Shown in pieces: positions 25,991 through 41,047 of a DNA stretch of 64,000 nucleotides. Positions within the stretch are counted from its first letter, which is position 1. Each line of letters begins with the position of its first letter. The DNA comes from a virus. Where the stretch lies: IMG/VR virus record IMGVR_UViG_3300032285_001268, positions 1 through 64,000 of that record; one strand, written 5' to 3'. The position numbers and the translations under genes were made by a program. The notes under the pieces are model-generated. The model worked only from the letters and a program-made list of their open reading frames with translations. It was not told the DNA's origin and searched no databases.

Positions 25991-26326
25991 TAGGCCCCGC
26001 TGTTAGTGTTATAGGATATAGTCATCTTTGGGTCGGGGAACTAATTGACTGTCTATGAGATGGGCAAATGACAGTCGATCTTCCCTTATATAGAATCTAG
26101 TAGGACCTGCTCGCCCTGCACTGACCCACTCTGCACACAGCCATAATTGTTCTTTAGTTGACTCATCCGCCCATGAGTCGTACGCTCTTATATACATAGG
26201 TTCGCTCCCGATATACACTAGTATATAGCTCAAACTGTGAGTATACTAGGCCCCGCTGTAGGCCTAGAGATAGGGCAGAGTTTAGAGGAGGTCCTAGCCT
26301 AGTGTGTGACTAGTAGGCCCCGCTGT
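25991..26326 (+). repeat. three copies of TAGGCCCCGCTGT
   Basis: Exact 13-mers at 25991, 26247 and 26314; related copies at 28646 and 34997. Confidence 0.8.
26009..26233 (-). CDS. hypothetical protein
   Basis: ORF track (TTG start). Confidence 0.4.
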   Translation of the reverse strand: MSYILVYIGSEPMYIRAYDSWADESTKEQLWLCAEWVSAGRAGPTRFYIREDRLSFAHLIDSQLVPRPKDDYIL

Positions 26327-26651
26327 AGGGGTGTTTAGAGTAACCATTTTAACTATGCCTCTCTGCCCCACCATTCAAAATTCTGCTGGCCAGCGTGATC
26401 CTAGGGTGGCATCCACTCTAAAGCCACAGTAGACCAGATCTGTCACACTTTATCACACAATTCAACACTTTTCTGCACTTTTTCAAGATCTTGGCCCCTA
26501 CAGTGACATCACTGTGCATGGTGGGGTGATCTATTTCACACTAGATCACACGGATTCACATTTAGATCTGGAATGACCGAGTAAATTCACTGTATATCTA
26601 CGGTAAGAATAGTGCTAACCACTAAGTACTATATACGACCGGGAGAACGCT

Positions 26652-26858
26652 ATGCCTAATGTTAGTCAAGCTCAGTTAAACTTTACCACTCATCACGCAC
26701 TGATAAGGGTTGATGAATCTGGTGGTATATTTGTATATAAGCACAATGGACACGGCTGTGATTGGGAGTTCTTCACTGATCAATATGCGGCCGCTGAGTA
26801 TATAATAGAAAATCTGCCACTAGTACACTATCGTATACAGTTTCCTGGGGAAGATTGA
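26652..26858 (+). CDS. hypothetical protein
   Basis: ORF track; GGGAGA RBS. Confidence 0.55.
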   Translation: MPNVSQAQLNFTTHHALIRVDESGGIFVYKHNGHGCDWEFFTDQYAAAEYIIENLPLVHYRIQFPGED

Positions 26859-26939
26859 GCTCTAGAATGATTTTAACATCACTCAGCTCAAAAGTCAAAC
26901 CAAAATTTCTCGTTAAGAATCGGTCTTATTTAGAATCTA

Positions 26940-27048
26940 GTTAGTTGGCACACACTAACTTAGAAATGGCAGGCACTCTCCACGTCCACCCCCGGATTGC
27001 CCGTTCGAACGCATGTCTTATCACTGGGGCAGTTTCGCTCTCTCAGCG
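26940..27048 (-). ncRNA. candidate small RNA, copy A (paralogue of 30170-30285)
   Basis: Own consensus promoter, no credible ORF, shares a 33-nt core with copy B, terminal hairpin AGTTAG/CTAACT; ends approximate. Confidence 0.5.
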
Positions 27049-27053
27049 TCCAT

Positions 27054-27147
27054 ATTATACTGCCAAAATTCATATGTGTCAATTCACTTTCAAAACGTCT
27101 GTGTTCTATCTGCCACAGTTGACACTTGTATAGATCCCTAGTATAAT
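27054..27147. promoter_or_regulatory. divergent pair of perfect sigma70 promoters
   Basis: Minus: TTGACA(27082-27077)-17-TATAAT(27059-27054); plus: TTGACA(27119)-17-TATAAT(27142). Confidence 0.85.
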
Positions 27148-27171
27148 AGTGGCTAGTAAGGAGGAGCGCAG

Positions 27172-27327
27172 ATGACTGAAGCAGACTATCAAAAACTAGA
27201 AGCCTTGGCTACCCTAGAGGATGCCATTGCCCGTATCTATAACATTGAAGGCGATCGTTGGCAGATGGCCTATGATACCCTGGAAGCTGTCCTGGGTAAT
27301 CTAGCCATAGAGCGGCCCCGTGGTTGA
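27172..27327 (+). CDS. small early hypothetical protein (51 aa)
   Basis: Found by hand: GGAGCG RBS, MTEADYQKLEAL..., stop TGA overlaps the next -35. Confidence 0.65.
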   Translation: MTEADYQKLEALATLEDAIARIYNIEGDRWQMAYDTLEAVLGNLAIERPRG

Positions 27328-27383
27328 CAGGATCGCTGATCCCGTGTATACTAGAGGCTAGTTAATTAATAAGGAGCGAACTT

Positions 27384-28091
27384 ATGTTTAAATTACTATC
27401 AACAGCAAACCCTAAGATCCAAAAGGGTACCAAGATGGGCTATCTCAGCTTCATCCTGCATCTTGCTCCAGCGGACTTGTCGGGTAAGGAGACTTGCCCC
27501 AAGCGGACAGCAGGTTGTACAGCGGCCTGCCTAAATACAGCAGGGCGTGGTGGCATGTTTAAACGGGGTGAGACGACCAATGCTATCCAGAAGGCACGTA
27601 TACGCAAGACTGAGTATTTCTTCCGCGATCGTGATGCTTTCATGCTGGATTTGGCCTACGACATACAAAAGGCCATTCGTTTTGCGGCCAAGCAGGGTTT
27701 GACGCCCGTGTTCCGCTTGAATGGTACTAGTGACTTATCCTGGGAGAAGTACGAAGTACCCGTGTTCTGCACTCGTAACATCTTTGAATTGTTCCCTACA
27801 GTACAGTTCTACGACTATACCAAAGTACTTGGACGCAAGGTTGCTGACATTCCTAACTATCACCTAACGTTCAGCAAGGCAGATGGCAACGATAGCGATG
27901 TGGCTGAAGCACTACTACAGGGCATGAGCGTGGTGGCAGTCTACGACCAAATCCCAGAGGGTGTACCCAGTGCAGACGAAACTGATCTGCGCTTCCTAGA
28001 CCCTAAGGGCATCATGTTAGGGCTTAAGGCCAAGGGCCGTGCTAAGAAGGACTACAGCGGATTCGTGATCCGTATCAAGGAGGCAGCATGA
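27384..28091 (+). CDS. GP88-like phage protein (Cys-rich, radical-SAM-like fold inferred)
   Basis: CPKRTAGCTAACL, RLNGTSDLSWE, FYDYTK, YHLTFS, DLRFLDP. Confidence 0.7.
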   Translation: MFKLLSTANPKIQKGTKMGYLSFILHLAPADLSGKETCPKRTAGCTAACLNTAGRGGMFKRGETTNAIQKARIRKTEYFFRDRDAFMLDLAYDIQKAIRFAAKQGLTPVFRLNGTSDLSWEKYEVPVFCTRNIFELFPTVQFYDYTKVLGRKVADIPNYHLTFSKADGNDSDVAEALLQGMSVVAVYDQIPEGVPSADETDLRFLDPKGIMLGLKAKGRAKKDYSGFVIRIKEAA

Positions 28092-28324
28092 CACGTACAG
28101 AGATAGACAATAGTCTACAGTGGGCGGGCACTGCCTCGCTCATGACCATGTATGTGATCATGAGCTTCTTTCCCGAACTACACCCCTGGAACCTAGTGGC
28201 TGGTTGCCTGGGCGGAGTACTGTATTTCGCTTGGACTCTACGTGTGGCAAATAAGCCACAGATGATAGTCAACGCCATGGGTATAACCATTACCCTACTA
28301 GGCTTATACAAGGCCTGGGGTTGA
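28088..28324 (+). CDS. small membrane protein
   Basis: Three hydrophobic helices. Confidence 0.6.
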   Translation: MTRTEIDNSLQWAGTASLMTMYVIMSFFPELHPWNLVAGCLGGVLYFAWTLRVANKPQMIVNAMGITITLLGLYKAWG

Positions 28325-28374
28325 CTAGAACCAGCTTTGAGCATACAATATACACTTACTAACAAGGAGCGGAT

Positions 28375-28638
28375 ATGAACATATCAACCATTGAGCAGTA
28401 TGTAGAGCAAAAAAATGAATGGCGTAAGATGTTTAACCAAAAAGTGTTAAGCCTGCTCAACGCCGCGGATCGTCAGACCATTGCTTTCAGCATTGACGCA
28501 GACCTTAGCCCAGAGAACCTTACCTGCGATGGCGAACTGCCTCGCTCACAGGTGCAGGCTCGTTACAAGATGCTGACCCGTGCGGCACAGGAGTTGGCCA
28601 GCATTGATCCCAATGTGGTATTCTACGAGTTCAATTAA
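28375..28638 (+). CDS. early hypothetical protein
   Basis: Promoter plus GGAGCG RBS; DLSPENLTCDGE. Confidence 0.7.
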   Translation: MNISTIEQYVEQKNEWRKMFNQKVLSLLNAADRQTIAFSIDADLSPENLTCDGELPRSQVQARYKMLTRAAQELASIDPNVVFYEFN

Positions 28639-28724
28639 CCAGGCGTGGCCCCGCTGTTAAGCAAGGTTGACGGCGGTGGCTTTTGGTTGTATACTATAGG
28701 CTAGACAGTTAGACAAAGGAGCGA

Positions 28725-28991
28725 ATGATGTACACCGTAGAACTTTATAAACGAGATGCCCGTAAGAAGTCGGGCGAGCGTCTGTATAGTAAGACAGACT
28801 ATGACACGGATAACCTCAGCATGTTAGAGCACACGGTCAAGCATACCTATCGTGCCAGCCAGGGATTCCGCTATGAGATCCACGAGACCTATGTTAAGAA
28901 GCATAACCTAATGGGTGGGGGCGAGTTCACAGAACGCTATGACACTCCCCACTACTGTTCACCAGCATCAGAATCTTATTGGAGCATGTAA
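28725..28991 (+). CDS. early hypothetical protein
   Basis: Promoter plus GGAGCGAAT RBS. Confidence 0.7.
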   Translation: MMYTVELYKRDARKKSGERLYSKTDYDTDNLSMLEHTVKHTYRASQGFRYEIHETYVKKHNLMGGGEFTERYDTPHYCSPASESYWSM

Positions 28992-28992
28992 T

Positions 28993-29280
28993 ATGGATAT
29001 CAAACAAGTAAACTCAGCTATCATGTTTGGTGATTGGACGGACGTAGAGCTCCGTAGCATGATCGATGCGGTCAAATGGAACCGTAGCCGATTGTCAGAC
29101 CGTACCAAGGCTGCGATCTGTGTAGGCGACAATGTAGAGTTCCTGTCCACTAAGACCGGGCGCTTGACCCGTGGCTTTGTAACCAAGAAGGCCATCAAGT
29201 ATGTCACAGTTGACACGGGCATGGGCTTGTGGAAGGTGCCAGCCAGCATGCTCACAGTGGTTGATAAAGAGCTGGCCTAG
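28993..29280 (+). CDS. early hypothetical protein (SH3-like C-terminus)
   Basis: ATG 28993 after GGAG; VGDNVEF...GFVTK...VTVD. Confidence 0.6.
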   Translation: MDIKQVNSAIMFGDWTDVELRSMIDAVKWNRSRLSDRTKAAICVGDNVEFLSTKTGRLTRGFVTKKAIKYVTVDTGMGLWKVPASMLTVVDKELA

Positions 29281-29338
29281 TGGTTGACAGGGCACCCAAA
29301 GCCCTGTATAATTATGGCTTACGTGATAGGAGCGAACT

Positions 29339-29536
29339 ATGGCAAGAGTGGACGGGCAAGTGGTCAACATCGGGGACTGGGTCAGCTTCAAGAGCGACTA
29401 TGAGCAGTGTGGCAAAATTGTCAAAATCAACGGCGATCGGTTGACCCTATTCAGAGACAATGAGGGCTTTGGGGGCGACTACATTGGGGGTGAAAACTAC
29501 ACCATTGAGTTGGCCAGCGATTGTTGGATTGAATAG
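29339..29536 (+). CDS. early hypothetical protein
   Basis: Promoter plus GGAGCGAAC RBS. Confidence 0.7.
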   Translation: MARVDGQVVNIGDWVSFKSDYEQCGKIVKINGDRLTLFRDNEGFGGDYIGGENYTIELASDCWIE

Positions 29537-29598
29537 GTTGACAGGTCCGGCCCAAACTAGTATAATATAGACATACAGTAAACGATTAGGAGCGAACT

Positions 29599-29943
29599 AT
29601 GAAATTACATATCACTACGCAATACATGGAGAACTACGGTGCCCACGATTGGGACGGTACTGGTGAGTGCCCTCAGTACTGGAAGTTCAAGGGTGGCGAG
29701 GACTACTTCTACCCATTGGGTTCAGCAGGCCGCTCAGCAGAGGCCATCGAGGAGTTGGTACACCACTTCCGTAAGGACATCGAGTGGGACGACATCGGTA
29801 GCCGTCAGTATATCGTAGGCTACGGTGTAGTGGCTGACGACTTCATGACTCCGTTTGAGAAGAGCCAGTTGGAGTACGAAGGTAGCATTACCTACCCTGC
29901 ACGGGTCCTTACAATCGAAGAAGATGTTTACTACGGAGCCTGA
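29599..29943 (+). CDS. early hypothetical protein
   Basis: Promoter plus GGAGCGAAC RBS. Confidence 0.7.
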   Translation: MKLHITTQYMENYGAHDWDGTGECPQYWKFKGGEDYFYPLGSAGRSAEAIEELVHHFRKDIEWDDIGSRQYIVGYGVVADDFMTPFEKSQLEYEGSITYPARVLTIEEDVYYGA

Positions 29944-29944
29944 T

Positions 29945-30169
29945 ATGATTACGATGGAAACTAGACAGAACTACGATCAGCGTCACGGCGGCCCATTTGA
30001 TCGTGGATCCGCTGACTCGTGGTATGGCCGTCCTAGAGACCCACACTTCTATACAGGCGACACTGGCACTAGCCAACGGGTAACTGAGCTTACACCCGCT
30101 GAGGTACAGGCCTACTTGGCGGGCTATCAGTGGAACGAGCAGTTCGGCGGTAAGAAGGATTACGATTAA
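29945..30169 (+). CDS. early hypothetical protein
   Basis: ATG 29945 after GGAG; HGGPFDRGSADSWYGR. Confidence 0.6.
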   Translation: MITMETRQNYDQRHGGPFDRGSADSWYGRPRDPHFYTGDTGTSQRVTELTPAEVQAYLAGYQWNEQFGGKKDYD

Positions 30170-30285
30170 GCTCTAGTCCCCAGCCACTGGGCCCTGCAAC
30201 TCGCCTGGGTTCCTCGCTGGGGCTTTTTCACGATCAGCCTATAGAACCGACAGGTACCCTCGACGTCCACCCCCCTCTGTTCGAC
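30170..30285 (-). ncRNA. candidate small RNA, copy B (paralogue of 26940-27048)
   Basis: Own minus-strand promoter at 30292-30320; 27/33 identity to copy A core; no RBS-led ORF; ends approximate. Confidence 0.5.
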
Positions 30286-30291
30286 TATCAT

Positions 30292-30320
30292 AGTATACGA
30301 TCTTGGGCCCAAAGTGTCAA
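30292..30320 (-). promoter_or_regulatory. antisense sigma70-type promoter inside the early array
   Basis: TTGACA(30320-30315)-17-TATACT(30297-30292). Confidence 0.8.
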
Positions 30321-30421
30321 CCCCAGGGGCAGAGGTGTGGCTAAAATACAACATCATTTTGGCTTGACATTTTGGCTAGTGTGCGCTATAATAAGTTTTT
30401 TACAGCAAACAGGAGCCTACA

Positions 30422-30586
30422 ATGCAATATTTTACTGTGTATCTGCGCTACGATAACGTAGAAGATTTGTGTGCTGTTAATGCTACTAGCGCAGAGGAAG
30501 CTATTGCTAAAGCGCAAGCATACTACAATGCACACGCAGAATTTTTAGACACTACTGTAACAGTTTATAAAGCAGTAGCAAGTTGA
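30422..30586 (+). CDS. small early hypothetical protein (54 aa)
   Basis: Found by hand: promoter, AGGAG, MQYFTVYLRYDNVEDL...; stop overlaps the next -35. Confidence 0.65.
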   Translation: MQYFTVYLRYDNVEDLCAVNATSAEEAIAKAQAYYNAHAEFLDTTVTVYKAVAS

Positions 30587-30637
30587 CATTTTGGACTAAG
30601 TGCAGTATAATTAACACTTACACACACAGGAGCACAC

Positions 30638-30862
30638 ATGTTTACAAATTGCATAGCCCGCGCTAAGTTAAACTACAACAAAAAATTAAAAACATATAAA
30701 CTGCTAGTAGCATTTATTAATAACGGAGACAGCATTACGCAACGCAATGCAAGTTTTATTAGCGGAGATTTGTGCGCAGAAACTATACAAAAAGACTTAG
30801 TGCGTGTGCTACAAACAGCACAGCAAACTCTGCGCACTAACAACATACAATTACTAGACTAA
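30638..30862 (+). CDS. early hypothetical protein
   Basis: Promoter plus AGGAG. Confidence 0.65.
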   Translation: MFTNCIARAKLNYNKKLKTYKLLVAFINNGDSITQRNASFISGDLCAETIQKDLVRVLQTAQQTLRTNNIQLLD

Positions 30863-30937
30863 ACTAGTAAACTAATACATAGCGCATTTGACTTTTTGGG
30901 CTAAGTGCGCTATAATTAGTTTTTTAAGGAGCGCAAA

Positions 30938-31186
30938 ATGGGACAGTACGCAAACACAGTTAACGCATACGCAGAAGACGAAGCACGAGCACGAGTTTAC
31001 AAAACGCAAAGACGTTTGCAAAGTTGGGGACAAACAAGTTACATGTTAAATGTAACTACTAACAAGTTCCGCAACGACATAGAAAAAAAAGCAGTTAAAT
31101 TAATTGCTAAGATGGAACTTGAAAAACTTGCGCAAATGCAAAAAGAGATTGCACAGTTAAAAGCAAAACATAGCATTACAGACTAA
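30938..31186 (+). CDS. early hypothetical protein
   Basis: Promoter plus AAGGAGCG. Confidence 0.65.
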   Translation: MGQYANTVNAYAEDEARARVYKTQRRLQSWGQTSYMLNVTTNKFRNDIEKKAVKLIAKMELEKLAQMQKEIAQLKAKHSITD

Positions 31187-31260
31187 AGGGTTAATACATA
31201 GCGCACTTGACATTTTGGACTAAGTGCGCTATAATTAGTTTTTTAGCAGTAAGGAGCAGT

Positions 31261-31530
31261 ATGTTGTTTAACACAAAGCAAATACGTGCATTAGCACGTA
31301 ATGTCAGTAACGTAAGCGCAAGTTATACGGACAGGACAAATAAAAAAGACAAAACAAGCAAAAGACGTACAGTAGTATTTTGTTTTAGCAATGCACAGGA
31401 TGCGGACACTTTAGCAAACTACTTGCGAGCTACTTGTGCAAACGAAGTAACACAGACTTGTGTTGCTAGAGATTACATAACACGCACATGGGGCGGAAGT
31501 TATGTACGTGTAAAAGCAGATTTAGCATAA
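31261..31530 (+). CDS. early hypothetical protein
   Basis: ATG 31261 after AAGGAG, downstream of promoter 31207. Confidence 0.65.
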   Translation: MLFNTKQIRALARNVSNVSASYTDRTNKKDKTSKRRTVVFCFSNAQDADTLANYLRATCANEVTQTCVARDYITRTWGGSYVRVKADLA

Positions 31531-31539
31531 GGAGTAAAC

Positions 31540-31701
31540 ATGCAGACATTTGTATACAAAAAAACACAAACACATTATTTGCACATAGATGCAGAAACGC
31601 AAGAGGAAGCAGACGCTATTGCAGACACAGTTGACATATATGCGGACAATGTATATGCAACGGAACTAGACGGTTGGGAATTAACAGATGGAGAAGTATA
31701 A
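31540..31701 (+). CDS. small acidic early protein (53 aa)
   Basis: Found by hand: AAGGAG, MQTFVYKKTQTHYLHIDAETQEEADAIAD... Confidence 0.6.
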   Translation: MQTFVYKKTQTHYLHIDAETQEEADAIADTVDIYADNVYATELDGWELTDGEV

Positions 31702-31877
31702 TGACAATACAATACGTAGATGCAAAGGCGGAGATTTTTAAATTACTTGCACAAGTGGAGACACTATTGCTAGAAGCAACTTGCGAAGGCGAGCAAATAG
31801 CGGGCACACGATGGGGTGACGAGATGTTTAACACACATGCGGAACTAGTGCAAATGGTTGACTACTACATAGACTAA
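31701..31877 (+). CDS. small early hypothetical protein
   Basis: TAATG coupling to the previous ORF. Confidence 0.6.
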   Translation: MTIQYVDAKAEIFKLLAQVETLLLEATCEGEQIAGTRWGDEMFNTHAELVQMVDYYID

Positions 31878-31886
31878 GGAGCGATT

Positions 31887-32054
31887 ATGACTAAGCTATA
31901 CCAAGTCACTTACACACTAACAGTGACAGAGGAAGTAGAAGCAGATAGCAAAGCAGACGCTGAGCAGGCGTTTAGCGAACTGTTTAGCGATGCTAACGAC
32001 TTGACCTGCTTGGGCAAGTATAAAGTTAAATGCTTGGGCAAAGCAGACGATTGA
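31887..32054 (+). CDS. small early hypothetical protein (55 aa)
   Basis: Found by hand: AAGGAGCGAT, MTKLYQVTYTLTVTEEVEADSKADAE...; stop overlaps the next -35. Confidence 0.65.
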   Translation: MTKLYQVTYTLTVTEEVEADSKADAEQAFSELFSDANDLTCLGKYKVKCLGKADD

Positions 32055-32101
32055 CATTTTGAGCAAAGTATAGTATAATTGTTTTTTAAGGAGCGAAACT
32101 T

Positions 32102-32458
32102 ATGCAAGCAACACAGTTTAAAGTTAGCAAAAAGCTAACACTAGTAGGCGTTACACAAGAAGACGACACTACTTGTACAGAGTACAAGTGCAAAGTAAAA
32201 GTGCAACTAGCAGGCGACAGTATTTGGGACTGTAATTTAAAAACAGTTACAATTAAAGAGATACACATTGCAGAGACAGACTGGGGCGATGGCGACACTA
32301 ACATACACATTGCAGTTGTACACACAGGCGGTGACGACAGCTGGCGCATATACACAGACAGCGGATTTGAGGCTGCTGTTAGCGACTTGCTAGGGACAGA
32401 CGTTAGTTTTACAGAGCAGGGCATGCAAGACGACGGCTACGCGAGTATGGAGTTGTAA
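32102..32458 (+). CDS. early hypothetical protein
   Basis: Promoter plus GGAGCGAA. Confidence 0.7.
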   Translation: MQATQFKVSKKLTLVGVTQEDDTTCTEYKCKVKVQLAGDSIWDCNLKTVTIKEIHIAETDWGDGDTNIHIAVVHTGGDDSWRIYTDSGFEAAVSDLLGTDVSFTEQGMQDDGYASMEL

Positions 32459-32526
32459 TACATAGCGCACTTGACTTTTTGGGTTAAGTGCGCTATAATT
32501 AACACTTACACACAGCAGGAGCGAAT

Positions 32527-32853
32527 ATGTTTAATGCAAAAGATTTAGGCAAGCAGTTTATTAAGTTAGTGCAAGCTAAAGACACAGACTTAGTAGAAGA
32601 TATTGTTGACTACGACGGCGAGGATACTTACTTGCTAGACTGTTATGTAGACGACGGCGAAGCTACAGACTATGCTAGCATAGACGAGTTAATTGCTAAA
32701 GGCATTGACGGAATTGAAACTGTAGATACTGTAACAGTAATGGGTAGCGCAAGCGGCGACACACGCTGTTACAGCAATACTGTTACAGCAATAGTACTAG
32801 ACGATGGTACTAAGTGGATGGATGCGGCATACTACGATTTAATTTTTGCTTAA
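32527..32853 (+). CDS. acidic early hypothetical protein
   Basis: Promoter plus GGAGCGAAT. Confidence 0.7.
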   Translation: MFNAKDLGKQFIKLVQAKDTDLVEDIVDYDGEDTYLLDCYVDDGEATDYASIDELIAKGIDGIETVDTVTVMGSASGDTRCYSNTVTAIVLDDGTKWMDAAYYDLIFA

Positions 32854-32862
32854 GGAGACTGT

Positions 32863-33051
32863 ATGAGCAACATGAGCAAAGCAATAGCATTGCATAAGGC
32901 AGTGCAGATGTTAGAGGAAGTAGACGCACTAGTGCAAAAAACACTAGGGGCTAGTGACGACTGTTACGATGTGCATTGTGCGCTGGAGGACTTGCAGGAT
33001 ACACTTGCAGGTTTTGCAGAGCAGTTAGAGGAAATGCAAATAACAGAGTAA
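32863..33051 (+). CDS. small acidic early protein
   Basis: AAGGAG RBS. Confidence 0.6.
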   Translation: MSNMSKAIALHKAVQMLEEVDALVQKTLGASDDCYDVHCALEDLQDTLAGFAEQLEEMQITE

Positions 33052-33132
33052 AGTGTAGGGCTTTTGGGCAAGCTGGTTGACAGTTTGCCCAAATCGCAGT
33101 ATACTATAGGCTAAGTTAACAAGGAGCGAACA

Positions 33133-33435
33133 ATGTTAAACATCAGCAAAATCGTAAAGGTCTACAACGGCAAAGTAGGTTGCATGTGCGGGTGTGGCGG
33201 CAAGTACAGCTACACAGCTGACGGGGCTACAAACTATGGCCCAGGCTATGACGTCTCCGACATGATTAACGAGCGTAGTGTACGCATTATTACAAAAAAG
33301 ATCCTCAGCAATCCTCTTGTCAAGTTTGAAGACAATTATGCTTATGTAGAGGACCGTGCCCGTAACAAGATGCAAATGGTTGTGTTCAAAGAGCCACAAG
33401 AGGTCTACAGCCCATTTGACACTTGTAACAGCTGA
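33133..33435 (+). CDS. early hypothetical protein
   Basis: Promoter plus GGAGCGAAC; GCMCGCGG. Confidence 0.7.
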   Translation: MLNISKIVKVYNGKVGCMCGCGGKYSYTADGATNYGPGYDVSDMINERSVRIITKKILSNPLVKFEDNYAYVEDRARNKMQMVVFKEPQEVYSPFDTCNS

Positions 33436-33473
33436 CAGTATAATTAAAACTTAAACACAGCAAGGAGCGAACC

Positions 33474-33719
33474 ATGCAGGTTAAAGAGCTAATTGAAGAA
33501 CTCAAGTACATGGACCCAGATGCCGAAGTACACTTCGCCTATAACTATGGCGATCACTGGCGCACTGAAGTGGCCCCAAAGGTCAGTCGGGTGCAGTCGG
33601 GTGCAGTGGAGTTTAGTGACTACCACCGCATGGACAAGGTAGCTGAAGAGGACGAGTGCTGGGACGAAGATACTGGCGATTGGAAAGAAGACGTCCGCAG
33701 GGTTGTGATTATTGATTAA
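33474..33719 (+). CDS. early hypothetical protein
   Basis: Promoter plus GGAGCGAAC; VKELIEELKYMDPDAEV start common in small phage proteins. Confidence 0.7.
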   Translation: MQVKELIEELKYMDPDAEVHFAYNYGDHWRTEVAPKVSRVQSGAVEFSDYHRMDKVAEEDECWDEDTGDWKEDVRRVVIID

Positions 33720-33785
33720 CCCGTAGAACTGAAGGGGATTTGACAAGAGTCTCCTTTGGTGCTATAATTGAGTTAAGTTAGAAAT

Positions 33786-33961
33786 TAGGGGTTACCTACA
33801 CCGTTAGGCCCTTGGAGAGGTGGAAGCGTTCCGACGGGGACCTAGTATCCAGGGCAAGAAGGCAGACCTTCGGGCGAAGCTGGCGGGTAGAGTAGGCTGT
33901 AATGACGAAGGCAACTGACGCCCTGGAGACGGTCCTAGGCAGTTAGACCGGAGTTCCCCTA
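33786..33961 (+). ncRNA. candidate structured non-coding RNA (about 176 nt)
   Basis: Dedicated promoter at 33740-33768, no RBS/ORF; closing stem TAGGGG/CCCCTA, nested GGACC/GGTCC and TCCAGGGC/GCCCTGGA, UUCG loop. Confidence 0.6.
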
Positions 33962-34023
33962 GTTGACAACACTATCATTTGGTTGTATAATACATTTTTC
34001 AACAGTACTTAAAGGAGCGAACG

Positions 34024-34515
34024 ATGGGTACACGAAGCATGATTGCTATTCAAAATCCACATAGCAAACAAATCCGCGCAGTCTACTGCCACTGGGATGG
34101 CTACTTGGAGCACAACGGCGCTATCTTGCAGAAGCACTATGCCGCAAGCCCTAAAGTCAACAACCTTATTGCCTTAGGCGACTTGTCTAGCCTGCGCCCT
34201 GAGATTGGTGTGCAACACGCATTCAGCTCGCTTGATGTACCCAAGCAAGAGCAAGAGGCTTACGATAAAGAGCACGGCAACAGTTGCACGTTCTACGGAC
34301 GTGACAGAGGCGAGAAGGACGTGGGCTTTAAGGTGTTTGACACGCTGGCTAAGGCTTGCGATCACTACACTTGGAGCGACTACTACTACTGCTTCAAGTA
34401 CACTAAGGCCAGCGACTACACAGTTGGCGAGTGGCACTACAAGAAGAACGGCGAGCGTTGGAAGAAGCTGGCTCCTGCTATTGCTAAACTTGATCCAAAG
34501 GAGTGTGCAGAATGA
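34024..34515 (+). CDS. early hypothetical protein
   Basis: Promoter plus GGAGCGAAC; MGTRSMIAI...VYCHWDGY. Confidence 0.7.
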   Translation: MGTRSMIAIQNPHSKQIRAVYCHWDGYLEHNGAILQKHYAASPKVNNLIALGDLSSLRPEIGVQHAFSSLDVPKQEQEAYDKEHGNSCTFYGRDRGEKDVGFKVFDTLAKACDHYTWSDYYYCFKYTKASDYTVGEWHYKKNGERWKKLAPAIAKLDPKECAE

Positions 34516-34727
34516 AAAAGGTAATTGTGCGCACAGAACTATATCAGGAACTTGAGGTTCCTGATAGCTGGGATAGGTATGATGTATACGATTTCCTAGC
34601 CGAGAACGAGAGCTTCCGTGAGGCTTTCCAAGGTGTAAGTAACCAAGATCAAACAGCCCGCATCCTAGACTTGGGTGTGGTTAATGAAACAGTAACAGAG
34701 ATGGGAGAAGAAGCATATGACGACTAA
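34512..34727 (+). CDS. small acidic protein
   Basis: ATG 34512 overlaps the previous stop. Confidence 0.55.
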   Translation: MKKVIVRTELYQELEVPDSWDRYDVYDFLAENESFREAFQGVSNQDQTARILDLGVVNETVTEMGEEAYDD

Positions 34728-34896
34728 GGCCGGATATTATCGCAAGAAGGCTATGAGTGACAGCAGGTTTGCCACACTCTATGAGGACCCTACCTACGAG
34801 TTGCCCGAGGACAAAGAGTTTGACGGCCCGGGATTTATTGATGTGACAGGCTGGACAGCAGAAGAAGTGCGCCGCCTGGGTCACGCAGACGAATAA
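34717..34896 (+). CDS. small hypothetical protein (59 aa)
   Basis: Found by hand: GGAG upstream, MTTKAGYYRKKAMSDSRFATLYEDP... Confidence 0.55.
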   Translation: MTTKAGYYRKKAMSDSRFATLYEDPTYELPEDKEFDGPGFIDVTGWTAEEVRRLGHADE

Positions 34897-34980
34897 CTAG
34901 TTCGCTCCTAGTTGCCCTTGAGGCCGGCACGACCCCCTCCGAGATGGGGGTCACTTTACAGCTAGACTGTGGCTTTTTTG
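34895..34980 (+). ncRNA. 3'-UTR hairpin element carrying anti-GGAGCGAA loop
   Basis: AACTAG-TTCGCTC-CTAGTT hairpin, then GACCCCC/GGGGGTC hairpin and T-tract. Confidence 0.55.
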
Positions 34981-35067
34981 CCACACTACCAGACCAGACC
35001 CCGCTGTAGCGCGGTTGACGCCCAAGCCAAAATCCTTTATAATTACTACATAATGAAGGAGCGGGCA

Positions 35068-35208
35068 ATGAAGATCACTATCAAAATACCAAACAAAACT
35101 AGGGCACACCTAGTTCTATTTTGCAAGGACACACCCTTCAAGCAGAAGCGTGTAGAGAGCAAGATTAAATATAAACGTCAACCTAAGCACAAGGGGAAAG
35201 AGCTATGA
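35068..35208 (+). CDS. small basic protein (46 aa)
   Basis: Promoter, AAGGAGCG, K/R-rich HLVLFCKDTPFKQKRVESKIKYKRQPKHK. Confidence 0.6.
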   Translation: MKITIKIPNKTRAHLVLFCKDTPFKQKRVESKIKYKRQPKHKGKEL

Positions 35209-35453
35209 AGGGCCTAATCACCAACCAATGGGACAGGGATAACCTTAACTTCCTGCTCAATACCAAAGACAAAGATCTAAAGGATTGGCATGCACAGGCA
35301 GACGCAGACGATCTAGCCTATGCTCAGGAACTCTTGGCCGCCTACAGCCTAGAGCTGAAACTTCAGGCTGAAGAGCTCCGTATTGAGTGCGAAATGGATC
35401 TAAAGGGCGACTTTAGCCAAGCATTAGCCGTGATTGACAAGATCAAGTTTTGA
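35205..35453 (+). CDS. hypothetical protein
   Basis: ATGA coupling. Confidence 0.6.
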   Translation: MKGLITNQWDRDNLNFLLNTKDKDLKDWHAQADADDLAYAQELLAAYSLELKLQAEELRIECEMDLKGDFSQALAVIDKIKF

Positions 35454-35490
35454 TACTATAATATACACTTAAACAACAAAGGAGCGAACT

Positions 35491-35637
35491 TTGAAGACAA
35501 TGACACAGAAACTAGAGCGTGATCGCTTAAATCGGTTAAAGCGTGAGCGTAAAGCCAATCGTCAGTTTGTGCTAGGTGCAGTGATGCTGGCAACTATCTT
35601 TGTAACCCCCTTGGCCGTTGCGGCCTTACTTTCTTAA
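35491..35637 (+). CDS. small membrane peptide (48 aa, TTG start)
   Basis: Found by hand: promoter, GGAGCGAAC, basic N-half and hydrophobic C-half. Confidence 0.55.
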   Translation: MKTMTQKLERDRLNRLKRERKANRQFVLGAVMLATIFVTPLAVAALLS

Positions 35638-35652
35638 TCATAGGAGCGAACT

Positions 35653-36240
35653 ATGCCTAATTGGTGCAACAACTATCTCGAATTAACTCACGATGATCCA
35701 GCAATGATCACTCGTGCCCGTAAGGCCTTTGCAGACGGACGACTGCTGGACGAATTTGTGCCAGTGCCAGAGAGCCTACACATCGTAGCAGGTCGAGTAG
35801 GTGACGACAACGATCCCAAGCAGATTGAGCTTGAGGCACAGGAAAAGGCCAACCTTGAGACACATGGCTACGCCACTTGGTATGACTACTGCGTCAACGA
35901 GTGGGGCACCAAGTGGGATGTAGGTGGTGATGACTACAGCCCTGCAGATGAAAAAGACCCTAATCATACTCGTATGAGTTTTGATAGTGCCTGGGCACCC
36001 CCTGTGCCTGCTATGGCCAAGTTCCAGGACTTGGGCTTCCGAGTCAAGTTGATCTACTGGGAGTCGGGCATGTGCTTCGCAGGCCTGTTTGACGAGAACG
36101 GTGATGACTTCTATGAACTTGGCGGTATGACTGCTGATCAAGTGGCTGAAGAGATCAACCCAGAGATCGACGAGTGCATGTGCATCAGCGAAAGTATGCG
36201 TGAATGGGAAGAAGAAAACGCTGAAGAGGAAGAAGAATAA
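35653..36240 (+). CDS. DUF1281/YubB-like ferredoxin-fold protein
   Basis: MPNWCNN, NEWGTKWD, FDSAWAPP, YWESGMCFAG. Confidence 0.7.
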   Translation: MPNWCNNYLELTHDDPAMITRARKAFADGRLLDEFVPVPESLHIVAGRVGDDNDPKQIELEAQEKANLETHGYATWYDYCVNEWGTKWDVGGDDYSPADEKDPNHTRMSFDSAWAPPVPAMAKFQDLGFRVKLIYWESGMCFAGLFDENGDDFYELGGMTADQVAEEINPEIDECMCISESMREWEEENAEEEEE

Positions 36241-36301
36241 CGGTTGACTGCCTTACCAAAAGGCAGTACAATTAGAATTAGTAAAACAACAAGGTACAGT
36301 A

Positions 36302-36448
36302 ATGAAAACCAACAAAGAAAAGAACTTAGAACATGATGCAAGGATGCAGGCCAAGGTTAGACCAAAGCCTGTAGAGTATAATTGGGAACCATTGGATGCA
36401 GTTGTAAAGCAATGGCGCCAAAGGAGTTATCAGAATGAGCAGGCTTGA
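36302..36448 (+). CDS. small hypothetical protein (48 aa)
   Basis: Found by hand downstream of promoter 36244. Confidence 0.45.
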   Translation: MKTNKEKNLEHDARMQAKVRPKPVEYNWEPLDAVVKQWRQRSYQNEQA

Positions 36449-36716
36449 ATTCTATGCTCGTCCGTTAGTTGCCTTTGATGCACACCTAAAAGAACATCGT
36501 CAGATCTACTATCAGTTTGTCAAAACGATGAGTTGGGGTGCTAGTCCATATAGGTTTATCTGCCCAGAAGATCACGGTGGCGATTTGGTTACCATGATCC
36601 AAAGACAGATCAACGACTACTACATCCACAAAGAATTTGGCGATCGACCACCGAAACCTGAGCCTTTGGTTCGCCAAAAAAGAAAGAAAACGGTTGACAA
36701 GGGCTCAAAAAAGTAA
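36435..36716 (+). CDS. hypothetical protein
   Basis: AAGGAG RBS; ORF track. Confidence 0.6.
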   Translation: MSRLEFYARPLVAFDAHLKEHRQIYYQFVKTMSWGASPYRFICPEDHGGDLVTMIQRQINDYYIHKEFGDRPPKPEPLVRQKRKKTVDKGSKK

Positions 36717-36778
36717 TATAATTTGAACATGCTAAGAAATTGGCATTAATTTTAACACACACAGAAAGAGGTAACAAA

Positions 36779-37144
36779 ATGGCTACAGATAAAACATTTA
36801 ATGTATTTGGTGTTTCTAAACTCAATGGCGAGTACAAAGTTCGTTTCGCGAATGACGTGATGCGTATCAAGGTATTGGCCAAACATGGTCATGAAGATAT
36901 CACTCTTGTTGACTTGGAGAAGTCAGTGAGCAAGTATGAAGGTATCAAGGCTATTGCCACTATGCCAGAGTTTGCCAATGCGGCTGCTCAGAGTGCGATC
37001 GCTGAATACTTGGAAGAAAAAGCACCTAAGGCTAAGGTCTCTAAGCCTGTGGCAAAAGCCGCGAAGACTCCGGTAGCGAAGACTACCAAAGCGCCTGCGA
37101 AAGCAGTTCAGAAAGTTACTGAGAACGAAGACGCTCCTTTCTAA
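36779..37144 (+). CDS. protein with histone-H1-like K/A/P-rich tail
   Basis: ATG 36779 after AGAGG; KAPKAKVSKPVAKAAKTPVAKTTKAPAK. Confidence 0.6.
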   Translation: MATDKTFNVFGVSKLNGEYKVRFANDVMRIKVLAKHGHEDITLVDLEKSVSKYEGIKAIATMPEFANAAAQSAIAEYLEEKAPKAKVSKPVAKAAKTPVAKTTKAPAKAVQKVTENEDAPF

Positions 37145-37147
37145 TCT

Positions 37148-37330
37148 ATGTTCATTCAGTACGAAGTCTGGGGCACACTCAACGGGCATGAAGAGCTCCT
37201 TGAGTGTGTAGCAACCCTAAAAGAAGCAGAAGAGTTGGCAGAAGAAGAAAGGTTCTTTGCTGATGAGATTTGGATCCTAGAGGACACGGACGGCGACCTG
37301 AAAGAAGTTAAGCGTTACCAGGGCCTATAG
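37148..37330 (+). CDS. small acidic protein; stop codon lies inside the tRNA
   Basis: ORF track. Confidence 0.55.
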   Translation: MFIQYEVWGTLNGHEELLECVATLKEAEELAEEERFFADEIWILEDTDGDLKEVKRYQGL

Positions 37331-37397
37331 CTCAGTTGGTTAGAGCAGAGGACTCATAATCCTTTGGTCCCTGGTTCGAGTCCAGGTGGGCCCACCA
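37321..37397 (+). tRNA. tRNA with CAT anticodon, probably tRNA-Ile2 (lysidine type)
   Basis: Acceptor GGGCCTA/TGGGCCC, D-arm TAGCTCAGTTGGTTAGAGC, anticodon arm GAGGA-CTCATAA-TCCTT, T-loop GGTTCGAGTCC, encoded CCA; C4-G69 and C5-G68 favour Ile2 over elongator Met. Confidence 0.9.
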
Positions 37398-37400
37398 CTC

Positions 37401-37430
37401 AAAGGTGTTGTAGAAATACAACACCTTTTC
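37401..37430 (+). terminator. hairpin after the tRNA
   Basis: AAAGGTGTTGTA-GAAA-TACAACACCTTT followed by TCTCTT. Confidence 0.6.
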
Positions 37431-37484
37431 TCTTGACATTTTGGCTAGGCCGTGCTATACTATAGGCTAAGTTAACAAGGAGCA

Positions 37485-38965
37485 GTGATGGGTTACAGAG
37501 TTCTTAACACCGTAGACACGATGCGTGACAATTATGGAGCACGTAAAGGCCTAGAAGGTCCTTACAATTTCAACGGCAGAGTGCTTTACTATGATCCTAA
37601 GGAAGGTAAGTATTACGATCCCAGCACAGACTTCTACGTGAGTCATGACGAATATTTTCGGTTGACAGGCCTCATCTAAACCTGTATAATTATACACATA
37701 CACAGCAAGGAGCGAACCATGCAAGTACACTTTATCGACACAGGAACACAGCAAGACTATGGCTTCAAAGAAGTAGAAGTCCACAGCTTCAAAATGGATC
37801 ATGCTGATGCACCCTACGCCATCGTTAGCAACCCATTCTTTCCAGGAGACAGCCTACGGGCCGAGTATAACTTTTACAACGGTAGCCTGCAATGGACGGT
37901 TGACGTCAGTTGATTTTGGCAGTATAATTAACATATTAACAAGGAGCGAACCATGTACGATATAGTCCAAAACCCAATTCCATTCAATGGATTCTTTTAC
38001 ACACCAGAATCATTTGCCCAACTGCAAGAGCGCATCGAACAGTTGCCAGCAAAGGAACGAGCACTTGTCTACACATTCGTAACACAGGCTATGAATCTGT
38101 GCTATCGAGAAGTAGAAGACAAGATCTTAAGCCGTGAAATCTTTGCACAATAAGGAGCAGTTATGACTACAGCATTTGAAGCAGTTATCTACGCACTCTA
38201 CTACACATGGCCCATGTGGGCTTTCCTGGCCTTGCTGAGTCTAGCCCTGTTCGTAGAAGAAGGCATCAAAGCCTACAGCCTGCGCAAGATGGTTGACAAC
38301 CCCACGCTTTGGTAATATAATTAAGACTTAAACAGCAACAAGGAGCGAACCATGAAGCTAAACGAAACCCGCACCGTCCCATATGGCACCATCCAGTATG
38401 TAGAGGACGAGGACTTTGGCAAGTGCTATCTAGTGCGCCACAACTTCATCAAACGCGAGATCTTCGCTGACACAGTCAAAGAAGCCAAGCAAGAGCTGGA
38501 AGAACTGCAGAAGGAAATGTCAGAGCTGAACTCTGCTATCTCTAAGCTTCAACGCTATGGCTACAAGGTCTACAAAGAAGTTGACAGCCTGTACGCTTGA
38601 GCATATAATTAACACTTACTTAAACAACATTGGAGCGAACAATGATTACAGCAGAACAAATCCAAGCAGGCAAGACTCTAGCAGAAGCGGCTGGTCGTGC
38701 AGAGTACGCCAAATGGGGCGGTGACCGTGGTGCTTGTGGCTTTGCTTGGGTAGAGGTCTACGTGGACCGTACTAACAGCAAACAGGCCAAAGAGCTGATC
38801 AAGGCAGGCTTCCGCAAGGACTACAAACCAAAATGCTTGAGCATGTGGGATCCAGCAGGCTTGCCCGTGCAGAACATCGACATCAAAGAAGCAGGCGCTT
38901 ATGCCTATGCCAACTACCTTACAGCACTGGGCTTGCGGGCCTATGCGGGTAGCAGACTAGACTAA
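37485..38965 (+). other. six small early ORFs, most with own promoter and GGAGC(GAA) RBS
   Basis: 37485-37679, 37719-37913, 37953-38153, 38163-38315 (found by hand, hydrophobic), 38352-38600, 38642-38965. Confidence 0.7.
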
Positions 38966-39038
38966 CCAAAACGTTAGGGCACATGCCCTAACTGTAGTAT
39001 AATTAATTTATTAACAGCGTAACAAAGGAGCGTAACAA

Positions 39039-39920
39039 ATGGTAGGTAAAGTCGTAACTAGTAAGATGCTAATGGCACTACAGCAAGATACCAAAAGCCT
39101 GGCCCAAGAGCCAGTTAAGAAAGACATCAGCACAGAGACTGATGAGCAGATCCTCAACCGTCTGCGTGATCGCTTTGAGATCTTAGATGACATGACCCGT
39201 GCAGTCAAGAAGGGCGATGTACGTGCTATGATCGTCACAGGCCCTCCAGGTGTGGGCAAGAGCTTTGGCGTTGAGAAAGTACTCAGCAAGCACGATGTGT
39301 TCGCTAACGTAGCAGACGACAAGAAGCTGAAGAAGTACGAAGTGGTCAAGGGTGCGATGAGCGCCATTGGCCTGTACTCTAAACTCTACGAATACTCAGA
39401 TAAGAAGTCAATCCTAGTATTCGACGACTGTGATAGCGTATTGCTTGATGACCTTAGCTTGAACATCTTGAAAGCCGCTCTGGATACCAGCAAGCGCCGT
39501 ATGATCCATTGGAACACAGACTCTAGGCTCTTGCGTTCAGAGGGTGTGCCCAACTCATTCGAGTTCAAGGGTGGTGCTATCTTTATTACCAACATCAAGT
39601 TCGATCACGTCAAGAGCAAGAAGCTACAGGATCACTTGGAAGCACTAGAGTCACGTTGCCACTACCTAGACTTGACTATCGATACAGAGCGTGAGAAGGT
39701 CCTGCGCATCAAGCAGGTAGTTACCGAGCACGGTATGTTAGATGACTATGAGCTGTCAGATGAAGCCAAGCTGGATGTGGTTGCGTTCGTAGATGCCAAC
39801 AAGCATCGCATGCGTGAGCTGAGCTTGCGTACAGTACTTAAGGTAGCAGACCTTAGAGCTAGCTTCCCGGACAAGTGGACTAGCGTAGCAGAGGTTACTT
39901 GTATGCGTGGCAGCCGCTAG
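39039..39920 (+). CDS. AAA+ family ATPase
   Basis: Walker A GPPGVGKS, Walker B ILVFDDCD, sensor IFITN, ALESRC arginine finger. Confidence 0.85.
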   Translation: MVGKVVTSKMLMALQQDTKSLAQEPVKKDISTETDEQILNRLRDRFEILDDMTRAVKKGDVRAMIVTGPPGVGKSFGVEKVLSKHDVFANVADDKKLKKYEVVKGAMSAIGLYSKLYEYSDKKSILVFDDCDSVLLDDLSLNILKAALDTSKRRMIHWNTDSRLLRSEGVPNSFEFKGGAIFITNIKFDHVKSKKLQDHLEALESRCHYLDLTIDTEREKVLRIKQVVTEHGMLDDYELSDEAKLDVVAFVDANKHRMRELSLRTVLKVADLRASFPDKWTSVAEVTCMRGSR

Positions 39921-40090
39921 GGCTCAGACCCTACATGCCCGTGTAGAGTATACAGAGCAAGCCGGCCCAGACTGGCAGACTCTGTGCAGTGAGAACAACT
40001 GACGTGATTCGCTCCCACTAGGTTGTTCGGTAGTGTGGTCCCTGACACCGTAATTCCGATTCGCTCCCGGTTGTGTCAGGGATTTTTTTT
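39918..40090 (+). ncRNA. candidate sRNA with two identical AUUCGCUCC loops, ending in an intrinsic terminator
   Basis: GTG-ATTCGCTCC-CAC (40004-40018) and CCG-ATTCGCTCC-CGG (40056-40070); outer stems GAACAAC/GTTGTTC and CCCTGACAC/GTGTCAGGG; T8 tract 40083-40090. Confidence 0.7.
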
Positions 40091-40283
40091 GGCTGGGGTA
40101 ACCGGGGTGGTGGGGCCAATAGAGGGGTGGGAGGCTTATATGTTAGCAACTACTAACTTAGCTAGCTAGCGCATGGGTACCGAGCTTTTTTCCACCATCT
40201 AAAAGTTTAAGTACTTCTTTATAATTTTTTACGCGGCAATTTTTTTAGGCTGCAGGACCCATTTCGGGCTATATACTATTACT

Positions 40284-40466
40284 ATGAACAATCAAGACTA
40301 TAACCAAACTGTGCTTATACGTGGTCGTCTATATCGCTATGATCCGGACTTTGATGCCTATTATCGTGTACAGGAGCAGGAAGGTCCCGTGAGTCGTTGG
40401 GCTTGGATTGCCCTCTGTGCTCTGCTGGCCATCGTAGCTTTCTGCATAGAATTTCGTCCCCTATAA
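40284..40466 (+). CDS. small protein with C-terminal TM segment
   Basis: ORF track. Confidence 0.55.
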   Translation: MNNQDYNQTVLIRGRLYRYDPDFDAYYRVQEQEGPVSRWAWIALCALLAIVAFCIEFRPL

Positions 40467-40472
40467 GCTACT

Positions 40473-40697
40473 GTGCGCGAATACTACATACTCACGCTAG
40501 ATCCACGTGCCAGAGAAGTTATCACATGGATCGTTGATCACAATATCACCTGTGATGTACACCTTAATCGCACACGTTTTTGGGTTCCAGAAGGAGTATT
40601 ATCTACAGAGTTTCATCTACGCTTCAGTGACTGTTGTCCCCCTGTAGATCCCGCTGATGATCTACTCATTGGGCGCACACGCTACGGCCCATTCTAA
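40473..40697 (+). CDS. hypothetical protein
   Basis: ORF track. Confidence 0.55.
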   Translation: MREYYILTLDPRAREVITWIVDHNITCDVHLNRTRFWVPEGVLSTEFHLRFSDCCPPVDPADDLLIGRTRYGPF

Positions 40698-41047
40698 CCA
40701 GCCAAAAGAAAAGCTCCACGAATAGAGCTTAAGGTTGCGGGCACGACCCGTATAGATGATCAAATTTTTACAACACTATGCGTTTGGTGGATTCTCCAAA
40801 TGGCACATTAGTTTGGTTCTCTTATACATAGTATACCCTCCCCTTGTTGTAATAGTATTTACAGATTACACCTAGATTACCGCGTCAAATGGGCTCGTTT
40901 TGCTCCATTAGATCTTTAACCAAATCAGGCCAATTAGGTAGCCTAGGGCAAAAGAGTATACCCCCAATAGCATCAACGCTAGGGGATATAACCAGTGATT
41001 TTCTACTATTTCTTTCAGTGTCATATGATTATTTACTATATACTAGC

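Follow-up and report, generated by a model that had tools for sequence, protein, structure and literature searches.

The Cuckoo small RNAs of the Alphaproteobacteria (CcsR1-4) present a common loop motif of the anti-Shine-Dalgarno type on highly variable stems (PMC4615179; PMC8034643). The motif, CCUCCUCCC, is repeated on two to four adjacent hairpins (PMC4615179), and the RNAs are cut from the 3' UTR of a small-protein mRNA (PMC4615179; PMC8034643). In phage T4, the early genes carry a mark that contains the Shine-Dalgarno sequence, GGAGRAYARAA; it is read by RegB and S1, and a repressor, RegA, is described as well (PMC3014915). Cluster K mycobacteriophages feature the SAS/ESAS elements, in which a 13-bp motif with AGGAG is located 3-7 bp before the starts of some non-structural genes (PMC3203893). 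The SAS goes beyond what is paired with 16S RNA; its function is unexplained, an RNA or protein partner has been proposed, and one reversed copy is found in several genomes (PMC3203893). Finally, the PeSL cassettes of T4-type phages consist of small ORFans with a near-consensus sigma70 promoter, a stem-loop terminator and a Shine-Dalgarno sequence, and they are shuffled among relatives (PMC2839356).

The present study concerns a hairpin of an uncultured freshwater jumbo phage, whose loop is the complement (“anti-tag”) of a ribosome-site sequence (“tag”) of the same phage's early genes. No paper describing such phage anti-tag hairpins was found in the literature. In architecture, the closest system is Cuckoo/CcsR, with which the hairpin shares a constant loop, variable stems and a location in the 3' UTR of a small (59-aa) gene. 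Its loop core, UUCGCUCC, differs from the Cuckoo motif CCUCCUCCC and fits a private, extended tag rather than a generic Shine-Dalgarno sequence. Moreover, it is a single, phage-encoded hairpin that is apparently aimed at the phage's own early genes, whereas the Cuckoo/CcsR RNAs have two to four hairpins each. The hairpin was not assigned to that family: the loop reads UUCGCUC, and neither an Rfam match nor a DUF1127 gene was found.

The closest functional analogue is the early shut-off of T4. Both phages have an early mark that is longer than the ribosome needs; in T4 it directs coordinated post-transcriptional inactivation of these genes, and it may do so here. The reader is a protein in T4 (a nuclease plus S1, or a repressor), whereas a candidate RNA loop takes this place here. 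The tag, GGAGCGAAC, is not a RegB/S1 site, as it has a C where GGAGRAYARAA needs a purine, and neither PF10715 nor PF01818 was found in the phage record, which is ~50% complete and in which the controls were also without signal. The tag resembles the SAS, from which it differs in sequence (GGGATAGGAGCCC in the SAS), host and phage type; no hairpin-displayed complement has been described for the SAS, whereas the phage tag has one. The hairpin's surroundings have the promoters, stem-loops and variable neighbors of PeSL cassettes. The anti-tag loop itself does not belong to that description: the stem-loops of PeSL cassettes are GC-rich terminators, for which complementarity to ribosome sites has not been reported, and the loop is an added feature of this phage. 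From the comparisons given below, we consider the chances to be somewhat better than even that the hairpin is an additional, facultative copy in a family of anti-tag RNAs that pair with the ribosome sites of early genes.

The early block and its ribosome-site tag

The stretch of DNA that was analyzed (“the window”) comprises 64,000 nt and is the first 64 kb of a 185-kb IMG/VR record (IMGVR_UViG_3300032285_001268) with a CheckV completeness of ~50%. A T4-type large terminase, a DnaB-like helicase and further phage genes are encoded in the record. Positions 33000-37000 had no megablast match among phage genomes, and the nearest cultured phages (PA5oct and the Rak2-like jumbo phages) are distant and are related at the protein level only.

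An early block of some 45 small genes occupies ca. 27-40 kb on the plus strand. When both strands of 27000-40000 were scanned for promoters, 41 sigma70-like sites were obtained, compared to 16 expected; 15 of the 41 are perfect TTGACA-17-TATAAT promoters (12/12) on the plus strand. The sigma70-driven early genes are marked by a private ribosome-site tag, AGGAGCGAAC (also written GGAGCGAA). GGAGCGA is carried by 17 starts of the block, mostly in the form AGGAGCGAAC. Searches of Pfam and PHROGs with the neighboring and target proteins assigned no function, and an Rfam search over 26000-41000, with E up to 1, returned nothing except tRNA and two chance matches.

A stop-codon hairpin complementary to the tag

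The features at the locus are as follows.

34717-34896, plus strand: small early gene encoding 59 aa (P0001), from the ORF list, translation, homologues and alignment A1
34895-34913, plus strand: anti-tag hairpin; 6-bp stem of AACTAG (34895-34900) and CTAGTT (34908-34913), 7-nt loop UUCGCUC (34901-34907)
34898-34910, plus strand: 13-nt anti-tag TAGTTCGCTCCTA, the exact reverse complement of TAGGAGCGAACTA

The ORF at 34717-34896 is a real gene, as judged from homologues with 66-89% identity. Its TAA stop codon (34894-34896) shares 2 nt with the stem of the hairpin. The initial annotation had reported a hairpin AACTAG-TTCGCTC-CTAGTT at the stop of this ORF, which is present as described, its stem overlapping the TAA, and had called TAGTTCGCTCCTA a perfect 13-nt complement of three early starts, including the A of the AUG; the sequence match is exact. 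The target sequence, TAGGAGCGAACTA, is located at 29327, 29587 and 35641, and the last nucleotide of every copy is the A of an ATG with which an ORF begins.

The 13-mer is confined to these four places in the whole 185-kb record, and the chance expectation for a given 13-mer is ~0.001 per strand per 64 kb. On the sense strand of the early block, TCGCTCC is found only at 34902, 40009 and 40061, in all cases in hairpin loops. A chance match was ruled out by the rarity of the 13-mer, by its four copies in 185 kb and by the three sense-strand occurrences of TCGCTCC. The feature is non-random and belongs to a family of RNA hairpins that is conserved.

A ribosome site of a minus-strand gene was also ruled out. 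The minus-strand tag is followed by GTTATT, and the nearest minus-strand start (a GTG at 34884) lies ~13 nt past the end of the tag and ~20 nt from the AGGAG core. In contrast, the copy at 26202 does serve a minus-strand early gene as its ordinary ribosome site.

The hairpin is weak (-3.1 to -4.7 kcal/mol in the folds). If the fold extends upstream into the final codons of the ORF, CGAAU (34890-34894) competes for GUUCG, and the probability of stem pairing is only ~6%; folds of the 3' UTR only, starting at the stop codon, do yield the hairpin. A T-loop mimic was considered and dropped, as position 58 would presumably be C instead of A.

Predicted targets of the hairpin loop

Three early starts are perfect 13-nt targets.

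29327-29341, plus strand: tag and ATG of ORF 29339-29536; the tag is in a 4-bp hairpin, AUAG/CUAU (29325-29341)
29587-29601, plus strand: tag and ATG of ORF 29599-29943; net pairing of -22 kcal/mol
35638-35655, plus strand: site before ORF 35653-36240; fold CAUAG-GAGCGAA-CUAUG, whose loop is the tag and whose stem includes the AUG

Positions 34893-34915 were compared using RNAduplex with all starts in the 64-kb window that are preceded by a Shine-Dalgarno sequence. Tagged early starts occupied 17 of the 18 highest ranks, at -18 to -28 kcal/mol; 16 of these are on the plus strand of the early block, and one belongs to a minus-strand early gene at 26197. The predicted targets are thus almost solely early starts, in agreement with the initial proposal that the hairpin serves the same regulon. 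Cofolding of the hairpin with the tags gave a net gain of -8 to -22 kcal/mol. The contiguous match to the window's tags is 9.4 nt on average; for 12 tags it amounts to 10-13 nt. In four relatives (L037, L006, L079 and L091), there are likewise matches of 12-13 nt extending into the stem.

Many tags reside in 4-5-bp hairpins of their own: this is the case for 96 of 450 unique tags, compared to 29.4±4.7 when the flanks were permuted. GAGCGAA(A) is then in the loop, and the AUG is in the 3' side of the stem (e.g. AUAAG/CUUAU, AUAG/CUAU, CAUUG/CAAUG, CAUAG/CUAUG and ACAG/CUGU). Because tags are displayed in hairpin loops, a loop-loop contact with the anti-tag is plausible, and a 19-nt hairpin and a 17-nt target hairpin form a compact, testable pair.

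Anti-tags exist for the dominant tag only. Searches for anti-tags of the minor tag variants (GGAGCAC, GGAGCAG, GGAGCAA and GGAGAGCG) yielded only matches that resemble coding sequence. When AAUCGCUCC loop variants were compared with tag variants, no informative correlation was obtained.

Distribution of the hairpin among related phages

Relatives were gathered by pattern-based locus searches, i.e. by protein homology and by exact motif. With the 59-aa protein alone as the query against viral contigs, no related locus was found; alignment A1 as the query gave one locus. Homologues of the upstream protein were located in 18 metagenome loci, two of which (L005 and L006) have TAG(stop)-TTCGCTCC-TAG at the stop codon. 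These two were found by protein homology and not by the motif. Downstream of the hairpin, both have a canonical terminator, then a consensus promoter and then a tagged gene. A scan of the IMG/VR viral contigs for an exact 14-mer added L037, L079/L061/L023, L069, L042, L091 and L066. It had 72 matches, ca. 10 of which are the element; most are chance matches or true ribosome sites on the opposite strand, the latter being found at many loci as CTAGGAGCGAACTA-TG.

In the relatives, the hairpin is always on the sense strand and just past a stop codon, apparently ahead of a terminator. It is located behind at least three unrelated gene types (the SRFAxxYEDP family, the YDIEQLYIEG family and, in L066, the AAA ATPase), and the downstream genes vary. 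A canonical terminator directly follows it in five relatives (L005, L006, L042, L069 and L066); in L005 and L042 this is the GC hairpin shared with the window plus T6-7. The spacer downstream of the L079 hairpin is not similar to the folded RNA at 33775-33964.

At this particular junction, the distribution is patchy, with the hairpin present in about 3 of 30 relatives. Among ~20 close relatives that were found via the downstream MKITIKIP gene, one has it; all of these are tagged, with 2-12 tags each and most with 6 or more. The hairpin is dispensable, because it is missing at this junction in most relatives that still have 6-12 tags per 10 kb.

The patchiness, and the location at cassette borders where recombination is expected, would also fit an origin at the DNA level. 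According to this explanation, the element is either a functionless inverted cassette left by recombination or a reversed site for a DNA-binding factor that recognizes double-stranded GGAGCGAA, and a double-stranded site is readable in either orientation. The orientation bias is extreme, however: ~250 tags lie directly before starts, compared to ~40 anti-tags, all of which are in hairpin loops at 3' ends, and neither orientation is enriched outside the early block. Furthermore, a duplex site needs no flanking inverted repeats with compensatory changes, and a 15-nt core is identical in L005, L006 and the window despite the L006 terminator being unrelated to that of the window. We regard a DNA-level origin as very improbable.

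A separate observation was made on the upstream genes. A number of small early proteins with unrelated N-terminal parts have a common C-terminal tail, SP[F/Y]xT[I/V]NS-stop (L005, L006, L010-L019, L021-L022, L042, L069 and L079). In the tail genes that have the hairpin, the last codon (AGC) and the stop codon (TAG) make the stem; those without the hairpin mostly have other serine codons and other stops. The window ORF 34717-34896 is without the tail, and its protein, P0004 and P0005 have a different conserved C-terminal half.

Sequences between the hairpin and the next promoter

Four elements were located 3' of the hairpin.

34914-34924, plus strand: mini hairpin GCC-CUUGA-GGC, from the folds; the L005 equivalent, in the same place, is GCC-GCAA-GGC
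34931-34952, plus strand: GC hairpin GACCCCC-UCCGAGAU-GGGGGUC with an 8-nt loop, followed by ACUUUAC without a U-tract
34968-34985, plus strand: hairpin TGTGGC-UUUUUU-GCCACA, whose loop is the T6 run at 34974-34979; a recurrent pre-promoter type
35015-35043, plus strand: next early promoter, TTGACG-17-TATAAT, from the promoter scan

A GC hairpin and a T-tract had been said to follow the anti-tag hairpin. Both are present, but they are 21 nt apart, the T6 is the loop of another hairpin, and together they do not constitute a canonical terminator; the terminator scan listed none behind the hairpin in the window. A discrete 3' fragment is not assured in the window, because there is no canonical terminator behind the hairpin. 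The architecture in the five relatives named above (a stop-codon hairpin, then a terminator) fits a 3'UTR-derived RNA.

Read-through bears on an explanation in which the anti-tag acts in cis only, folding back on a tag within its own early RNA, be that RNA polycistronic or a product of read-through, so that translation would be restricted to transcripts started at nearer promoters. Hairpins that sequester ribosome sites on early transcripts are known from the T4 genes e and soc. The candidate partners here are the 5' tag at 34012 (~880 nt upstream) and, on read-through, the downstream tags at 35479 and 35641. Without a canonical terminator behind the window's hairpin, read-through into 35068-36240 is plausible; two of the best-matching tags lie downstream, at 35479 (11 nt) and 35641 (13 nt), and the hairpin lies within early transcription units and has no promoter of its own. 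The distances of 570-880 nt, however, are far above those of the known local hairpins of T4, and the strong terminators directly behind the hairpin in five relatives would cut off downstream tags. In addition, the best matches at 29327 and 29587 sit 5 kb upstream, past many promoters and terminators, and the tag of the hairpin's own unit, at 34012, matches over 10 nt only. Exclusive action in cis is therefore judged to be fairly unlikely.

Several other features of this interval were noted. The pre-promoter hairpin type, GTGGC-(A/T-rich loop)-GCCAC or GTGTTGT-AAAAATA-ACAACAC, recurs in many related loci; at times it is a terminator stem, and at times it is without a U-tract. A motif, CCCCGCTG(T), precedes the -35 box by 5-15 nt at several early promoters in the window (34999-35006 and ~26253) and in relatives (L097, L105, L016 and L095). 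A possible pseudoknot at 34925-34952 of the window would join an upstream CGG to a CCG in the loop of the GACCCCC-N8-GGGGGTC hairpin. This CGG/CCG pair (window and L042) is swapped jointly for CGC(A)/(U)GCG in L037 and L005, i.e. in four sequences and one event (L005:953-1021, L037:8644-8714(-) and L042:226-284). Finally, a very basic 46-aa protein, MKITIKIP...KHKGKEL, is encoded at 35068-35208 and is kept in more than 20 relatives, where its gene often comes directly after the hairpin, the terminator and the promoter. Pfam and PHROGs gave no match for this protein, which could be RNA-binding or ribosome-associated.

Constant loop, changing stems

Throughout the family, the anti-tag is always located between short inverted repeats, with at least 10 stem types around a constant loop. 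The stems include CCG/CGG, GUG/CAC, GCG/CGC, CUG/CAG, CCUAGG, CCUUGG/CCAAGG and CAAG/CUUG. In the class with a 7-nt loop (G-UUCGCUC-C), five stems were distinguished: CTAG/CTAG, AAGG/CCTT, AGAGG/CCTCT, CUGG/CCGG and CCGG/CCGG.

Thirteen hairpins of the latter class were aligned (alignment A3). A minimum of 3 bp was the criterion for choosing 12 of the 13 sequences, so that the inner pairs of A3 are in part a product of the selection. Both sides change in four of the six stem pairs, and 82% of the cells pair. The covariation score was 0.49, compared to 0.20±0.05 in shuffled alignments (reached by 0 of 500), and slid controls were much lower. Six loci have G-C as the fifth stem pair, four have A-U (the window and L037 among them), and two lineages have a mismatch there. 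The initial annotation had taken the hairpin as independent support for an anti-ribosome-site function; the conservation at the stop codon and the compensatory stem changes do support display of the loop for pairing with tags.

An invariant loop on varying stems would also fit a protein that reads the loop. In that case the element would be a signal of RNA metabolism (a processing or stability site, or the site of an RNA-binding protein), and its complementarity would have been inherited from an inverted ribosome-site cassette. Early regions of the T4 type do shuffle cassettes of promoter, stem-loop and Shine-Dalgarno sequence (PMC2839356), the early ribosome-site motif of T4, GGAGRAYARAA, is read by RegB and S1 (PMC3014915), and several relatives have, just downstream, the gene for the conserved, very basic small protein (35068-35208). 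Against this stands the probability of ~1e-5 that two independently conserved motifs are complementary over 8-10 nt. The complementarity often reaches the variable stem, amounting to 12-13 nt in several genomes, and anti-tags are found solely for the dominant tag and solely in lineages having that tag. Homologues of RegA and RegB were not found in the record (~50% complete). Overall, we assign quite a low probability to a protein-read signal.

Companion hairpins behind the early ATPase

The early block has three anti-tags only, namely the hairpin at 34895-34913 and a pair of twins at 40007 and 40059.

40004-40018, plus strand: twin hairpin A, GUG-AUUCGCUCC-CAC, of the same anti-tag family
40056-40070, plus strand: twin hairpin B, CCG-AUUCGCUCC-CGG, within the apical part of a terminator hairpin

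The stop-codon hairpin is like the twins in its core loop (UUCGCUCC), in its strand and in its position at the 3' end of an early unit. The loop is closed as G-UUCGCUC-C (7 nt) in the former and as A-UUCGCUCC-C (9-10 nt) in the twins. The match to the AGGAGCGAAC tag is 10-13 nt (12 tags) for the stop-codon hairpin, compared to 8-9 nt (mean 7.5 nt) for the twins; the shorter match of the twins arises because the consensus tag has A...C flanks, which the flanking A and C of the twins do not fit. This makes the hairpin at 34895-34913 the best-matching anti-tag of this genome. It also stands apart from a terminator stem and shares nucleotides with a stop codon. It is facultative, whereas the twins are universal: one to three anti-tags were found behind the ATPase in 79 of 79 ATPase loci. 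The proposal of a third anti-tag hairpin was correct in that this is a genuine family member, whose loop is shared with the twins but whose stem and genomic surroundings are not. Its occurrence on a differently built hairpin elsewhere offers independent support that the loop matters. In the L066 lineage, the CTAG-type hairpin is itself in the post-ATPase position.

A sister lineage (L223-L248 and L270, relatives of the L066 ATPase) has a cysteine-rich small gene directly behind the ATPase. The single anti-tag hairpin of this lineage, CCG-AUUCGCUCC-CGG, and the terminator have moved behind the cysteine-rich gene and are thus still at the 3' end of the unit.

Among 142 ATPase loci, tag and anti-tag are both present in 108 and both missing in 16; the mixed classes number 13 and 5, and most of these 18 loci appear to end early on one side. 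Close relatives of the ATPase all have the same tag, and distant ones have none; in the tag-less distant lineages, the ATPase gene ends in plain terminators without the loop. Some 200 related loci share one tag, such that it is presence or absence alone that co-varies, on few evolutionary events.

A proposed model for early gene control

Pairing of the anti-tag with the tags, be it in trans or in cis only, is quite likely. We lean slightly toward the hairpin being a trans-acting regulator derived from a 3' region. Pairing with the tags probably damps early protein synthesis; repression of translation is the likeliest effect, because the duplex would cover the Shine-Dalgarno sequence and, for three genes, the start codon.

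The proposed element is a short hairpin, situated toward the 3' end of an early transcript, that would display (G)UUCGCUC(C), the complement of AGGAGCGAAC. The loop would nucleate pairing with the GAGCGAA part of the tag, in a kissing contact where the tag is also looped. The weak stem would then open, and pairing could spread to 10-13 bp, covering the Shine-Dalgarno sequence and, in the case of three genes, also reaching the A of the AUG. Small (30S) ribosomal subunits would thereby be kept off, and translation of the tagged early genes would be damped or shut off with the buildup of early RNA. Since the stem overlaps the stop codon of the upstream ORF, terminating ribosomes should melt or cover the hairpin, and the overlap suggests that the hairpin is coupled to translation. 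It may accordingly reach its highest activity on RNA that has been processed or on which translation has ceased. This timing logic is conjecture, because the anti-tag and its targets are made from the same early promoters.

A more elaborate reading of this trans-acting regulation can be formulated, in which the phage would have a private RNA addressing network. Looped tags would kiss mirror-image anti-tag loops, and the stop-codon copy would be gated by translation, giving a self-reinforcing switch-off. Under such a scheme the hairpin would be active only when translation of its own mRNA falls, and no protein repressor or nuclease would be needed. We consider this elaboration to be distinctly unlikely.

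If the pairing is real, very abundant freshwater jumbo phages control their early genes using an RNA reader of a private tag, a job that T4 handles with the proteins RegB and RegA. An anti-tag system would also suggest a possible purpose for the unexplained start-associated sequences of other phages. With regard to abundance, the early AAA ATPase (39039-39920) matched at least 8000 database proteins at E<=1e-10 in public metagenomes, and the best 120 of these (at least 8000) matches were all at least 86% identical. The abundance of this ATPase in public metagenomes indicates that the phage group is very common in fresh water.
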